From an uncultured Lachnospiraceae bacterium (GTDB lineage Bacteria > Bacillota > Clostridia > Lachnospirales > Lachnospiraceae), in the NCBI GenBank assembly GCA_947166015.1, contig CAMVCQ010000003.1, positions 12 through 64,011 of the forward strand: a stretch of 64,000 bases of DNA. The letters are read 5' to 3'. Of the stretch, positions 34,981 through 55,488 are shown in pieces (the stretch's first letter is position 1; every line of letters begins with the position of its first letter). Below the pieces are notes generated by a model. That model was given only the letters and a program-made list of their open reading frames with translations, did not search any database and was not told where the DNA came from. Position numbers and translations under genes: made by a program.

Positions 34981-35041
34981 CTCCTTTCCGAAGCGTAGCG
35001 TAGGAACGTCGATGTGAACATCAGGTTCACATCTGACATCA
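34981..35041 (-). repeat. 61-nt structured element, copy 1 (ends in the RBS)
   Basis: 47/61 gapless identity to 55428-55488 with compensatory stem changes. Confidence 0.8.
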
Positions 35042-35064
35042 ACATACAATTTGTGATGATGTAC

Positions 35065-35478
35065 CTATTTATTTAGGTACCTGTCGCGTCCCGACAGCCT
35101 TGCCATAGCACGCGCAAGAGATGTTGTCGTGATATGATAATCAACAATGCTCTGTTTCTGGCTGAGCCTTTCCCTCGCTCTCTCCGCAGCAGCCTCTGCC
35201 CTGAATGCATCAATCTCATCCGGTCTTTCCGCCGAGTACACGATCACATCCACAAGGTTGTGCTTCACGGTCAATATCCCATCAGAAACGATCGCAACCT
35301 GCTCTTCACCGCCGGGAACCCGAAATCTCAAATCCCCGATCTCGATATTTGTCATCATCTGCTCGTGACCTGCCATGATAGCCATTTCGCCATCCTCGAC
35401 ATTGAATATGAGTATTTCTGCAGGCCCCTCGTAGAATATACGATTGCAGGCTACTATCTTCAGATCAAATGTATTCAT
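35065..35478 (-). CDS. atpC: F1 ATP synthase epsilon subunit
   Basis: GEMAIMAGHEQ beta-sandwich with C-terminal helices; last gene of the atp operon. Confidence 0.92.
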   Translation of the reverse strand: MNTFDLKIVACNRIFYEGPAEILIFNVEDGEMAIMAGHEQMMTNIEIGDLRFRVPGGEEQVAIVSDGILTVKHNLVDVIVYSAERPDEIDAFRAEAAAERARERLSQKQSIVDYHITTTSLARAMARLSGRDRYLNK

Positions 35479-35496
35479 TCGAATCCTCTCCGGGTG

Positions 35497-36921
35497 TTAT
35501 TGCATTACTTGTTTCTTGCCGCCGATCTCAACGGCTTTTTTCTTTGCATCCTCTATCGTTCCGACGTTGAAAAATGCCATCTCCGGCAGATCGTCAAGCT
35601 CGCCGTCAAGTATCATTTTGAATCCTCTGAGCGTTTCCGAAAGCGGAACAAAAACTCCCGGTGTTCCCGTGAAGTTTTCAGCCACATGGAACGGCTGAGA
35701 GAGAAATCTCTGAAGCTTTCTCGCACGGTATACGGTCAGTTTATCCTCTTCCGACAGCTCCTCCATACCGAGGATCGCGATAATATCCTGAAGTTCTTTG
35801 TATTTTTGAAGAACCTCCTGCACCCTTCTGGCGATCAAATAATGTTCTTCACCTATAACATCTGCTTCAAGAATACGCGACGACGACTCAAGCGGATCTA
35901 CCGCAGGATATATACCCTGTTCGGCTATTTTTCTCGAAAGCACCGTCGTTGCGTCAAGGTGAGAGAATGTCGTTGCAGGCGCCGGATCCGTAAAGTCATC
36001 TGCCGGCACATATACTGCCTGCACGGAGGTAACAGATCCTTTTTTTGTCGAGGCGATCCTCTCCTGAAGCGCTCCGAGATCTCCGGCGAGCGTCGGCTGA
36101 TATCCGACTGCTGACGGCATACGGCCCAGAAGCGCGGATACCTCTGATCCTGCTTGTATAAAACGGAAAATATTATCTATGAAAAGTAACACATCTCTAT
36201 TTTCAACATCACGGAAATACTCCGCCATCGTAAGCCCCGTTTCCGCAACCCTCATACGGGCTCCCGGCGGCTCATTCATCTGTCCGAATACAAGCGCCGT
36301 TTTTGAAAGCACTCCGGATTCGCCCATCTCTGTCCAGAGGTCATTTCCCTCACGGGAGCGCTCTCCGACTCCTGTAAATATCGAGTATCCTCCGCTTTCT
36401 GTCGCAATATTGTGTATAAGCTCCTGGATAAGCACTGTTTTTCCTACTCCGGCTCCTCCAAAAAGTCCGATCTTTCCACCTTTCGCATATGGCGCAAGCA
36501 GGTCGATGACTTTGATCCCCGTCTCAAGTATCTCAACCACCGGGCTCTGCTCCTCAAATGTCGGCGGCTCTCTGTGTATAGACCAATGCTCTTTTGCATT
36601 TACCGGCTCGCCTTTGTCTATCGGTTGTCCAAGTACATTAAACAGTCTTCCGAGTGTTTCAGGTCCGACGGGAACTGTTATTCCTTCGTCATTTGCCGTG
36701 ACCTCCATATCTCTGTGAAGTCCCTCACTTGCGGCAAGCATGATGCAACGAACCACATCATGTCCGATATGCTGAGCAACCTCCATCACTCTGGTGTTTC
36801 CGTCCACATCCACAGTAAGCGCGTTCTTGATCGCAGGAAGTTTTCCACCCGCGAACTCAACATCCACGACCGGACCGGAAACCTGAATTATTTTTCCAAA
36901 ATACGTGTTATTGTTTTCCAT
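35497..36921 (-). CDS. atpD: F1 ATP synthase beta subunit
   Basis: [15 protein letters not shown] and EELSEED motifs. Confidence 0.98.
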
Positions 36922-53149: not shown

Positions 53150-53157
53150 ATTTACTC

Positions 53158-55419
53158 CTATTCTTTGTAATCATACTCGAAGACTACCGTTGAAAGCGGC
53201 GGCAGGTAAAGCTCGATCTCATAACCGTCCACCGTCTTTCCGTCGCTGTCCTTGACTTTTGCCGCTTCAGCGACGATCGGTGTTTGATTGATCCTTCCCT
53301 GTCCTCCAAAGCGCTCGTCATCGGAGTTTAGGATTTCCTTGAACTTACCTTTGCACGGAGCTTTGCAGCGATATTTCGTGTGAGCGATCGGTGTGAAATT
53401 CACCACAAAAAGCAGCTGTTTTTTGGCTGTTTTTCCGCGCCTGATAAATGAAACCGTGCTGGTCTGCGGTCTCTGGCAGTCCATCCACTCAAATCCCATT
53501 ATATCATAATCATTGTAGTACAAAGCATCATGACTTGTGTAAAGCTTGTTGAGCTCTCTCACATAGTCCTGCATTTTTTTGTGTCTCTCATCCTCGAGCA
53601 GGAACCAATCAAGACTTCTGAATTCAGCCCATTCGCGTCTCTGTGCGAACTCCTGCCCCATAAAAATGAGCTTTTTGCCGGGATGTCCGTACATATATCC
53701 GTAGGATGCGCGCAAGCAAGCGAACTTATCTCCCTCGAGGCCGGGCATTTTGTTGAACATCGAGCATTTTCCGTGCACAACCTCGTCGTGAGACAGCACG
53801 AGGATATATCTCTCGCTCAGATAATAAGCGATCGAGAAGCAGAGCTGATCGTGATGGAACTGCTTAAAATACGGGTCGAGCTTGATGTACTCGAGGAAGT
53901 CATTCATCCATCCCATATTCCATTTATACGAAAATCCCAAGCCATTGTCTTTGACACGCGCGGTAACTCCCGGCCATGCCGTAGACTCTTCGGCTATGAT
54001 ATATGCCCCCGGATGCTCCTCATCCATAAGTTCATTTAAATCCTGCAAAAATTCCACAGCGTCATAGTTTTCGTTGCCGCCGTCTTTGTTTGCGATCCAC
54101 TCTCCGTCACGCTTTCCGTAATCCAGATAAAGCATCGAAGCGACAGCATCAACCCTAAGACCGTCAATATGGAATTTTTCAACCCAAAACAACGCGTTTG
54201 CCACGAGGAAATTTTTGACCTCCTTGCGTCCGTAGTCAAAAATGTAGGTTCCCCAGTCCGGATGCTCACCTTTCCTTGGGTCCGGATGCTCATATAGCGC
54301 CTGTCCGTCGAACTTTCCGAGGCAATGCTCATCTCTCGGGAAATGAGCCGGTACCCAGTCGAGGATAACCTGTATGCCTCGTTTATGCATCTGATCAACG
54401 AAATACATAAAGTCTTCCGGCGTTCCGTATCTGCTTGTAGGTGCGTAGTAGCAACCAACCTGATATCCCCACGATCCGTCAAACGGATACTCGGCTATTC
54501 CCATAAGCTCCACATGCGTGTAGCCCATTTCCTTCAGATAGTCACCGAGCATCTCGGCAAGCTCTCTGTAGCTGTAGTTTCCGTCATCGTCGTCTTCGAT
54601 CTTCTTTTTCCATGAAGCCAGATGAGCCTCGTATATGGTCATCGGCTCTCTTTCGCGCTCCTCACGGGACTTGGAATCACGTTTTTTCATATATGAAGCG
54701 TCAGTCCACTTGTAATGATCGAGTCTCGCGATCCTCGATGCATTTCCGGGTCTTTTTTCACAATAATTTCCATACGGATCAGTCTTGTAGATTTTTTCAC
54801 CCGTTCGAGAAACGATCTCATACTTGTATATGGCACCTTCCCAGGCTCCGGGCACAAAAATCTCAAAAATGCCACTCTCGCCGTGAAGCATCATGTAGTG
54901 AAGTCTTGAATCCCACATATTGAATTCTCCGACAACGCTGACAGCTCTGGCGTCCGGGGCCCAAACAGCGAATCTTGTCCCCTCAACTCCGTCTATTGTC
55001 TCCATATGTGCTCCGAGCTTGTCAAATATCCTATGATGCTTGCCCTCGCCGAAAACATAGCAGTCAAAATCCGTGATGGCTTTTTCGAATGAATATGGAT
55101 CATCGATCTCAATAATGTCATCATCCGAGTACTGCACGCGGAAGCGATATTTTTTGAGGAAATCCTTTTTCTTTTCGATCACGAATCCAAACAGATCCTC
55201 ACAGCCTTCCATGCGCTCAAGCTCGCCTATCTCATCGCCTTTTGAATTGATAAGCCACACATGCCACGCGCAAGGTCTGTAAGCGGTAAATATCTGTACA
55301 GTAGTCCTGCCTTTTTTGTATTCATGGCAACCAAGGAGATCCTGCGGTGCATTGATAACGCCGTCGGAAAGCTCGCTGATGAGGGGCTTATTGGCCCATT
55401 CACTCAAGTAAGTGTTCAT
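53158..55419 (-). CDS. glgB: 1,4-alpha-glucan branching enzyme
   Basis: FAVWAP, SWGYQ, DWVPAHFP, RVDAVASMLY, AEEST and LSHDEVVHGK motifs. Confidence 0.97.
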   Translation of the reverse strand: MNTYLSEWANKPLISELSDGVINAPQDLLGCHEYKKGRTTVQIFTAYRPCAWHVWLINSKGDEIGELERMEGCEDLFGFVIEKKKDFLKKYRFRVQYSDDDIIEIDDPYSFEKAITDFDCYVFGEGKHHRIFDKLGAHMETIDGVEGTRFAVWAPDARAVSVVGEFNMWDSRLHYMMLHGESGIFEIFVPGAWEGAIYKYEIVSRTGEKIYKTDPYGNYCEKRPGNASRIARLDHYKWTDASYMKKRDSKSREEREREPMTIYEAHLASWKKKIEDDDDGNYSYRELAEMLGDYLKEMGYTHVELMGIAEYPFDGSWGYQVGCYYAPTSRYGTPEDFMYFVDQMHKRGIQVILDWVPAHFPRDEHCLGKFDGQALYEHPDPRKGEHPDWGTYIFDYGRKEVKNFLVANALFWVEKFHIDGLRVDAVASMLYLDYGKRDGEWIANKDGGNENYDAVEFLQDLNELMDEEHPGAYIIAEESTAWPGVTARVKDNGLGFSYKWNMGWMNDFLEYIKLDPYFKQFHHDQLCFSIAYYLSERYILVLSHDEVVHGKCSMFNKMPGLEGDKFACLRASYGYMYGHPGKKLIFMGQEFAQRREWAEFRSLDWFLLEDERHKKMQDYVRELNKLYTSHDALYYNDYDIMGFEWMDCQRPQTSTVSFIRRGKTAKKQLLFVVNFTPIAHTKYRCKAPCKGKFKEILNSDDERFGGQGRINQTPIVAEAAKVKDSDGKTVDGYEIELYLPPLSTVVFEYDYKE

Positions 55420-55427
55420 ATACTATT

Positions 55428-55488
55428 CTCCATTCCGGAGCGTAGCGACGGAGTGGCGACGAGAACATCCAGTTCTCGTCTGCCATCA
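55428..55488 (-). repeat. 61-nt structured element, copy 2 (ends in the glgB RBS)
   Basis: 47/61 gapless identity to 34981-35041. Confidence 0.8.

Follow-up and report, generated by a model that had tools for sequence, protein, structure and literature searches.

Why do two unrelated genes of one bacterium carry the same structured sequence on their ribosome-binding site (RBS)? The question is raised by a stretch of 64,000 nucleotides, here called the window, from an uncultured Lachnospiraceae bacterium (assembly GCA_947166015.1, contig CAMVCQ010000003.1, positions 12 to 64,011 of the forward strand). A first-pass annotation of this DNA had described a 61-nt element that runs into the Shine-Dalgarno (SD) sequence of a gene for a protein of 97 amino acids (aa) and of glgB, with a stem that contains a bulged A and preserves its pairing through three double substitutions. 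Sequence, alignment and folding bear this description out. The minus-strand 61-mers at 34981-35041 (copy 1) and 55428-55488 (copy 2) align without gaps and are identical at 47/61 positions. In an all-against-all comparison of ungapped 61-mers, this level is matched elsewhere in the window only by tandem repeats at 23.7 kb and 47.8 kb and by the pair 892/4536. The core CGCTACGCTYCGGAA occurs in both copies and nowhere else in the window, with 0.12 occurrences expected. The hairpin P1, read from the sequence and folded, is a stem of 12-13 bp with a bulged A in either copy, and three of its T-A pairs are replaced by G-C, C-G and A-T between the copies. An SD closes each copy, 8-11 nt ahead of the start codon. 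Copy 1 is located between atpC and the 97-aa gene, the start of which is fixed by full-length homologues, and copy 2 between the phosphoglucomutase gene (pgm) and glgB, the identity of the latter being confirmed by Pfam.

Each of the two 61-mers is probably the 3' portion of one copy of a repeat family of Lachnospiraceae that is non-autonomous, modular and rich in hairpins. This family is likely to be of the BOX/ERIC kind, specialised for translation-initiation regions, and there is good reason to think that it behaves as a small mobile element more than as a dedicated regulatory RNA. The original boundaries were therefore drawn too narrowly, as near-identical copies before other genes set the full unit at ~134 nt. 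Four copies are 97-100% identical over ~115 nt, spanning hairpin HA, P1 and the tail, and each stands before a different gene; they comprise window copy 2, two copies in the metagenome-assembled genome (MAG) RUG381 and one at locus L187. The boundaries were compared in 68 pairs of cores that are at least 93% identical and sit before different genes. On the right, identity stays at ~1.0 through the last G of GGAG; one base further it is 0.5, and past the ATG it is down to background. Leftwards, it fades within ~4 nt upstream of hairpin H0, beyond which lies a purine-rich, non-identical SD-like stretch. Because the identity profiles of near-identical cores end at these points, the unit is taken as (W)TAGTGTG...GGAATGGAG, which is 134 nt long in the window.

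At glgB, copy 2 has the native SD-like stretch on its 5' side and the native spacer on its 3' side. Since the unit lies 3' of the native SD core and ends in its own GGAG, the series of SD, native spacer and ATG is regenerated and the downstream gene remains translatable. The distance from GGAG to ATG matches the usual SD spacing because the unit sits between the SD core and the gene's own spacer. The old SD remains in front of the GTG of H0.

From 5' to 3', the unit consists of (W)TAGT-GTG, the H0 hairpin, the HA hairpin, a UGAUG linker, the P1 hairpin and the tail ...CGCUYCGGAAUGGAG. A scan of GTDB with the tail pattern, using one genome per species, found 13 Lachnospiraceae, Eubacterium and Clostridiales loci that share the full architecture. 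The layout seen at 13 loci comprises an SD-like stretch, (W)TAGT, H0 (GTGTGAAAAATCA...TGATTTTTCACAC), occasionally a small extra hairpin, HA (GGCTATTTGTG-CCGRAGCGT-CACAAATAGCC), the linker, P1, the tail ...CGCTYCGGAATGGAG, ~6 nt and ATG. H0 starts with a start-codon mimic (GTG), 4-6 nt past the displaced SD. P1 combines a conserved base, which includes the bulged A, with a variable tip. The family is modular: P1 can be absent, present, expanded or nested, a further hairpin between H0 and HA is optional, and tandem as well as partial units occur. The sequence CGCTACGC, initially regarded as invariant, varies across the wider family, with variants such as CGCGTAAACGC, CGCTTACGC and AGCGTAAAACGC.

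How widespread the unit is, and how it is placed, was assessed with a pattern confined to HA. This pattern is blind to the 3' end and was chosen to avoid conditioning on the RBS. On metagenome contigs from human, rabbit and ruminant gut, it retrieved at least 120 loci and at least 122 copies, and at least 59 of the copies sampled in this way carry H0, with sequence variants that preserve its pairing. The tail is present in 119 of the 122 copies listed, the remaining three being cut by contig ends. A start codon that opens an open reading frame (ORF) follows 3-10 nt past GGAG in 109/119 copies, at exactly 6 nt in 89 of them, and is ATG in 108. Most of the 10 exceptions are decayed copies or tandem units, in which the next H0 follows. 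Copies are not randomly oriented: in 109/119 HA-sampled copies and in both window copies, a start codon follows directly downstream, in the same orientation as the unit. Neither inverted pairs nor placement in convergent intergenic regions was seen among the sampled copies.

A covariance model (CM) built from 39 diverse copies scores copy 2 at 103 bits and copy 1 at 45 bits (E = 1.8e-9). Within the 64 kb of the window it detects these two copies only, and 705 kb of sequence on the flanks adds ~6 more. The density is roughly one copy per 30-120 kb. When ruminant gut metagenome contigs containing the organism were mapped to copy 2, 55425-55563 proved to be highly repeated, which is the whole intergenic stretch. 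In run X1, 85 contigs fall on the element, with a summed depth of 1000-2000 compared to ~8 for the unique flanks. Related copies number in the hundreds across other genomes and metagenomes. Partial units are common in other genomes, including solo tails that still give an SD and fusions of H0 with the tail. The family is common in gut and rumen Lachnospiraceae.

Rfam 15 gave no match at gathering score in the whole window or in 12 related loci, and around both copies only noise at E up to 10. A literature search by sequence string and by concept yielded no description of the repeat family in the publications covered. In viral contigs, the tail pattern gave 6 chance-like matches that have no hairpin or SD context, and PLSDB plasmids contain no match to the element. 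INPHARED phages gave only 3 matches, MT837007.1, MT838414.1 and MT836788.1, all unannotated "Bacteriophage sp." contigs from human faecal viromes. The element copies on these contigs are 77-80% identical and could be prophage or host DNA, or phage-borne.

Strains and species differ in whether they have the unit. In relatives, the 97-aa gene always follows atpC (62-86% protein identity), and the junction is either 6-20 nt long or consists of 94-106 nt of unrelated sequence, in each case without the element. The synteny of pgm and glgB is likewise retained, with glgB at 59-68% identity; here the element-free junction measures 0-16 nt or holds 114 nt of unrelated sequence. No glgB orthologues closer than ~70% identity, which were sought to date the insertion, were found. 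Element-free alleles of glgB occur within the species as well, in two metagenome strains, and both lack 134-135 nt. In run X7 the allele reads GGGAAAGGGG-AATAGTAT-ATG and matches the left junction of the filled allele, while in run X6 it reads GGGAATGGAG-AATAGTAT-ATG and matches the right junction. Recombination between the SD-like direct repeats on either side of the unit can yield each of the two alleles, or the X7 form may instead preserve the empty site in its ancestral state. Copy 1 varies as well. A contig of run X1 lacks exactly 35005-35040, 36 nt that correspond to P1, between GTT repeats, and contigs in X3 and X8 lack 35018-35062. The parts of both copies and their immediate surroundings are compiled below.

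Table. Parts of the two window copies and adjoining sequence (positions in the window).
Feature	Position	Strand	Basis
Copy 2, complete 134-nt unit ATAGTGTGAAAAAT...CTCCGGAATGGAG	55428..55561	-	Near-identical copies; empty alleles lacking 134-135 nt
H0 hairpin: GTGTGAAAAATCA, loop, TGATTTTTCACAC	55522..55558	-	Folded
HA hairpin: GGCTATTTGTG, loop CCGGAGCGT (55502-55510), CACAAATAGCC	55491..55521	-	Eleven pairs, outer four covary; loop complementary to tail
P1 hairpin: conserved base GGC-A(bulge)-GA...TCGCC, variable distal stem	55455..55484	-	Both-side changes in 10/12 pairs, 39 copies
Tail TCCGTCGCTACGCTCCGGAATGGAG	55428..55452	-	Pairing analysis; copy-to-copy identity stops right after GGAG
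ACGCTCCGG, HA-loop partner within the tail	55435-55443	-	
GGAG, working SD of glgB	55428-55431	-	
Displaced native SD-like stretch GGGAAAGGGG, upstream of the insertion	55562..55571	-	8 nt before glgB ATG in the X7 empty allele
Native spacer AATAGTAT and glgB ATG	55417..55427	-	Same in filled and empty alleles
Copy 1, 5'-truncated unit	34980..35056	-	CM score; alignment to copy 2
Copy 1: HA 3'-arm remnant TCACAAAT, followed by TGATG linker	35049-35056 (remnant)	-	
Copy 1: P1	35008-35037	-	
Copy 1: tail GTTCCTACGCTACGCTTCGGAAAGGAGG; SD AGGAGG	34980-35007; 34980-34985	-	
11-nt spacer and ATG of the 97-aa gene (after atpC)	34966..34979	-	Start from full-length homologues

The genes behind the unit have little in common. 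The 89 distinct proteins encoded downstream of HA-sampled copies fall into 136 Pfam families, each represented by 3 proteins at most; among them are DnaJ, TrpA, Obg, a MurF-type ligase, RhaA, phosphoketolase, GH94, Lgt and regulators. The downstream genes are functionally incoherent, and there is no regulon.

We infer that the family is or was mobile DNA, and the following course is proposed for its spread, whether past or present. Targeting could rely on the likeness of the tail-to-head junction (GGAAUGGAG / WUAGU / GUG AAA AA) to ordinary initiation regions, the pattern imitated being SD, ~6 nt and AUG AAA AA. At least 15/69 heads contain the element's own unusual tail AUGGAG, and several copies are tandem. 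Candidate routes would be site-specific or microhomology-guided recombination, or a strand-specific enzyme that recognises hairpins. After insertion, selection for translation of the host gene would keep the tail and its SD while upstream modules decay, which would explain the solo tails and window copy 1.

Several points weigh against mobility. No transposase, recombinase or autonomous parent was identified. The sole transposase-like ORF in the window, at 22911-23546 (+), is degenerate and IS3-like; it carries HTH_28/HTH_Tnp_1 and only rve_2, a C-terminal piece of the integrase core. No autonomous insertion sequence (IS) with the same ends occurs among the sampled copies, in which the tail lies within 85 nt of HA, although no genome-wide search for one was made. 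Terminal inverted repeats (TIRs) are absent, as (W)TAGTGTGAAAAAT on the left does not complement CGGAATGGAG on the right. Nor is there a clear sign of a consistent target-site duplication (TSD); in 33 GTG-type copies the identity of head and tail spacers is 3.24 compared to 3.02 when shuffled, a value reached by 112/2000 shuffles, and ATAGT flanks window copy 2. The alleles without the unit need not be ancestral empty sites and could have lost it by deletion between the SD-like direct repeats on its flanks. With tens of copies per genome, the element is less numerous than classical REPs (repetitive extragenic palindromes). It is found in metatranscriptome contigs. Finally, the association with start codons, the complementarity of loop and tail and the conserved bulged A could equally well reflect a function in RNA.

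The pairings deserve closer attention, as they bear on this last point. In the 39-copy alignment, standard pairs occupy 92.6% of the cells, compared to 80% in column shuffles, and 0/500 shuffles reach 92.6%. When the partners are slid by 1-3 columns, 33-46% are paired. Double changes affect 15/31 pairs; among them are 10/12 of the P1 pairs and the outer four of HA. The nine nucleotides of the HA loop, CCGRAGCGU, complement the tail sequence ACGCUYCGG. Across 119 copies, the R of the loop and the Y of the tail combine as G:C in 69, A:U in 45, G:U in 5 and A:C in 0, and in the 39-copy alignment as GC in 26, AU in 12 and GU in 1. RNAalifold additionally predicts a mini-hairpin of the tail CUCC/CUUC with the SD GGAG, for which the changes are solely one-sided, from C to U. 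The weak TCC..GGA stem proposed in the first-pass annotation is not retained in the wider family; the 3' pairings with support are that of the HA loop with the tail, which covaries, and that of CUCC with GGAG, which is compatible only. A GGAG decoy is present within the HA loop, and SD pairing and HA-loop pairing compete for the same tail CUCC. Since this CUCC pairs either with the real SD or with the decoy, the element could buffer or modulate SD accessibility. Judging from the predicted pairings, a switch of SD accessibility or an insulator is plausible.

Over all helices, G·U and A·C are equally frequent (30 vs 30), and for this reason the pairing cannot be assigned to the sense-strand RNA. 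DNA-level hairpins or mutational palindrome correction are possible causes. Of the selection on structure postulated earlier, the conservation of pairing is real, while its assignment to the RNA level fails on the same count. A metatranscriptome contig is identical to 55427-55542, which places the element in RNA preparations, with DNA carry-over as a possible source.

A dedicated cis-regulatory mRNA leader is the rival explanation that survives best, although it is unlikely. Such a leader, either a translational riboregulator or a site for a global RNA-binding protein, would control access to the SD through the mutually exclusive pairings of the tail, CUCC with the SD or the tail with the HA loop, and would have been duplicated because it is useful. 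A covarying secondary structure that overlaps the SD, as seen here, is typical of cis-regulatory leaders. The strict co-orientation and fixed distance to start codons agree with this explanation, as do the strong covariation in HA and P1, a loop-tail pairing that tolerates G·U and never shows A·C, the SD-sequestering mini-hairpin predicted by RNAalifold, the conservation of the bulged A and of UGAUGGCAGA, and the RNA contigs. It is opposed by the functionally unrelated downstream genes, by orthologous junctions without the element in relatives, by differences in presence among strains of one species and by near-identical copies at different loci. Furthermore, the balance of G·U and A·C provides no sense-strand RNA signature, and no Rfam family matches. 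As the primary identity of the element, a cis-regulatory RNA is thus unsupported. The other original proposal, a REP-like mobile palindrome carrying an RBS, comes closer: the element is multi-copy, strain-polymorphic, located before unrelated genes and equipped with its own SD, but it is not a plain REP. The mobile-repeat and translational-leader readings are not mutually exclusive.

Very little speaks for a leader peptide or bicistronic coupling, in which the displaced SD and the GTG of H0 would start a short upstream ORF (uORF) that controls the downstream start. In nearly all copies the GTG or TTG of H0 is indeed preceded, at 4-6 nt, by an SD-like stretch, and the uORF that opens with the second GTG of copy 2 has a stop codon, TGA, that overlaps the ATG of glgB. 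However, the frame of the H0 GTG relative to the main ATG is uniformly spread (27/29/21), the uORFs range from 1 codon (GTG-TGA start-stop) to >100 codons with scattered ends, only 8/70 stop within -3..+7 of the main ATG, and no peptide is conserved. With neither frame nor length conserved, the coding reading was rejected. Gene callers in public assemblies lengthen the 97-aa gene at 34675-35049 (-) by starting it at a TTG and reading across the element, which gives 124 aa (cluster P0001, with 14 members); the longer version is an annotation artefact caused by the element.

Equally improbable is a DNA-level operator, that is, a palindromic site for a dimeric transcription factor, or a terminator or attenuator shared by both genes. 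The stems are indeed palindromic, and both window copies are situated within co-directional gene pairs. Yet variable stem positions change in a compensatory manner and half-site bases are not conserved, the hairpins are not followed by a U-run, and tens of copies precede unrelated genes. That the two RBS regions resemble each other by chance, or through local gene conversion, as the mere two copies in the window might suggest, can be dismissed, since 47/61 is exceptional within the window and hundreds of related copies in other genomes and metagenomes refute it.

Within the mobile-repeat reading, a more far-reaching proposal is made tentatively. The family may be an SD-homing element: a gene-less mobile unit that would integrate precisely between SD core and spacer, mimic an initiation region and bring a replacement SD. 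The triad of decoy SD in the HA loop, anti-SD and SD might then act as a built-in translation switch or insulator; in dominant Lachnospiraceae of gut and rumen, it would serve dozens of unrelated genes in each genome. Recognition could proceed via the bulged-A base of the hairpin and a TCC-N2-CGCUACGCU-N-CGGA hairpin loop, both of which a widely distributed enzyme or host factor could read. This loop recurs in unrelated repeats of Spirochaetia, Acidobacteriaceae, Prevotellaceae and other Bacillota.

Part of the tail reaches beyond the family. The 20-mer TCCNNCGCTACGCTNCGGAA of the window-type tail also occurs inside otherwise unrelated multi-copy repeats of other lineages. Its carriers are Spirochaetia/Treponema, with the same type in Paratractidigestivibacter (Coriobacteriia), Acidobacteriaceae, a Prevotellaceae MAG, Peptococcaceae and other Bacillota, and two methanogens; the loci are among L016-L133, for example L024, L029, L036, L042, L044 and L053. 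The 20-mer usually forms the apex of a hairpin on a TTCC/GGAA stem, with a loop of 13 nt. The complement of the HA loop was sought in the matches from other phyla and is absent in 105/108, the other 3 being inverted copies. What other phyla have in common is the 20-mer and not the architecture, and the SD/ATG context is missing. These repeats have no Rfam match. With 17 specified bases, the search is expected to return a few dozen chance matches in the collection; the recurrence of TCCNNCGCTACGCTNCGGAA within several distinct repeat families is not explained by chance.

The window contains further repeats. At 47729-47947 (+), ~2.4 tandem copies of a GC-rich 90-nt unit are 98% identical; the array contains internal hairpins (GAGCCGGCTTCGCCGGTCGACTGCC) as well as a tract of CTTCGCTTCGCTTCG and is situated between two convergent genes, 45282-47720 (+) and 48035-50047 (-). 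The ~60-nt pair 892-956 / 4536-4600, also at 47/61, extends into CTCCT, which reads AGGAG on the minus strand, upstream of genes on that strand, and may represent another shared leader or promoter region. An intergenic 33-nt repeat at 1219-1251 / 18409-18441 is 82% identical and contains a perfect 12-bp palindrome, TTTCCGAAAAAC-TGAT-GTTTTTCGGAAA. At 23651-23925, fifteen overlapping copies of a periodic repeat of 9-15 nt lie within an ORF and constitute a low-complexity coding repeat. Inside the phosphoglucomutase gene, 55696-55737 and 55968-56000 show very high metagenome and metatranscriptome depth, which probably stems from conserved motifs of the enzyme in many species and not from repeats.

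If the mobile-repeat reading is true, each genome of these abundant commensals of gut and rumen has dozens of genes translated from an RBS that a repeat delivered and not from the ancestral one. Strain-level variation in expression could follow, as filled and empty glgB alleles coexist in rumen samples. For annotation and assembly the consequences are practical: ORF callers extend genes through the element, as with the 97-aa protein, and the element breaks metagenome contigs. In the engineering of Lachnospiraceae, it could serve as a natural, portable and structured RBS cassette. For mobile-DNA biology, insertion exactly after an SD core with neither TIRs nor a clear TSD would fall outside the standard classes.

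The closest known kinds of element are pneumococcal BOX, ERIC/Correia, REP/BIME and hairpin-ended IS200/IS605 derivatives. The BOX elements of Streptococcus pneumoniae (boxA-boxB(n)-boxC) and RUP/SPRITE are modular, hairpin-forming and non-coding, measure from <200 bp to a few hundred bp and reach tens to ~100 copies per genome (PMC3049150). BOX-type elements are co-transcribed with their neighbours and can change their expression, modules are gained and lost, and spurious ORFs have been called through them (PMC3049150). BOX and RUP carry TIRs as well as TSDs, and both are enriched between genes that converge (PMC3049150). The present family resembles BOX in being small, modular, hairpin-forming and multi-copy, in the gain and loss of modules, in the spurious ORFs and, as far as the metatranscriptome contigs show, in co-transcription. 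It differs from BOX and RUP in having no TIRs and no clear TSD, in its co-orientation, in abutting the start codon and in supplying an SD. The likeness is one of build and behaviour, as set by description, and the host family differs.

ERIC/IRU and Correia (CREE/NEMIS) elements are imperfect palindromes of 100-150 nt in transcribed regions of Enterobacteria and Neisseria, often near start or stop codons, and alter mRNA processing or expression (PMC3049150). The present family likewise consists of imperfect palindromes of similar length in transcribed regions. ERIC and Correia elements occur in both orientations, possess TIRs, use a TA target and do not systematically replace the SD. In contrast, the family described here has a single orientation, no TIRs and a replacement SD. 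A classical MITE, a miniature kind of transposable element with inverted repeats, was ruled out by the missing TIRs, and no consistent target duplication was evident.

REP, BIME and REPIN elements are mobilised by RAYT (Y1/HUH) transposases. REPs are 20-40 nt long, are found in either orientation and also as inverted pairs, mostly on the 3' side of genes, and carry GTAG at the foot of the hairpin. Shared features are short hairpins with compensatory variation, the extragenic location and the abundance, and a REP-like AGC-GTAG-CG string is present on the opposite strand of the window-type tail. This GTAG is found only there, 9 nt from P1, and is lost in most members (CGCGTAAACGC and similar). 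Unlike REPs, the family is uniformly oriented and 5' of genes, and the CGCTACGC string is unconserved in its wider membership. Its single orientation, 5' position and absence of inverted pairs rule out a classical REP.

PATEs, which derive from IS200/IS605, end in hairpins, have neither TIRs nor TSDs and insert on one strand only, on the 3' side of a short target. The present family is similar in having no TIRs or clear TSD, a hairpin near the left end, WTAGT at the left junction and strict strandedness; it is dissimilar in that the hairpins at its left and right ends are unrelated, and no cognate TnpA was found. To our knowledge, strict adjacency to SD cores is not a known property of PATEs. 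By analogy, the resemblance may serve as a lead. With SD-sequestering translational riboswitches and RNA thermometers, the family shares an anti-SD-like CUCC by the SD, for which the HA loop offers another partner, and a long-range pairing that covaries. Unlike these, it is neither tied to particular genes nor conserved at orthologous positions, matches no Rfam family and is strain-polymorphic; the coherent genes and orthologous conservation that mark a riboswitch are not found. The repeat family differs from all the mobile kinds in its obligatory site right after the SD core, its uniform orientation and its built-in replacement SD.

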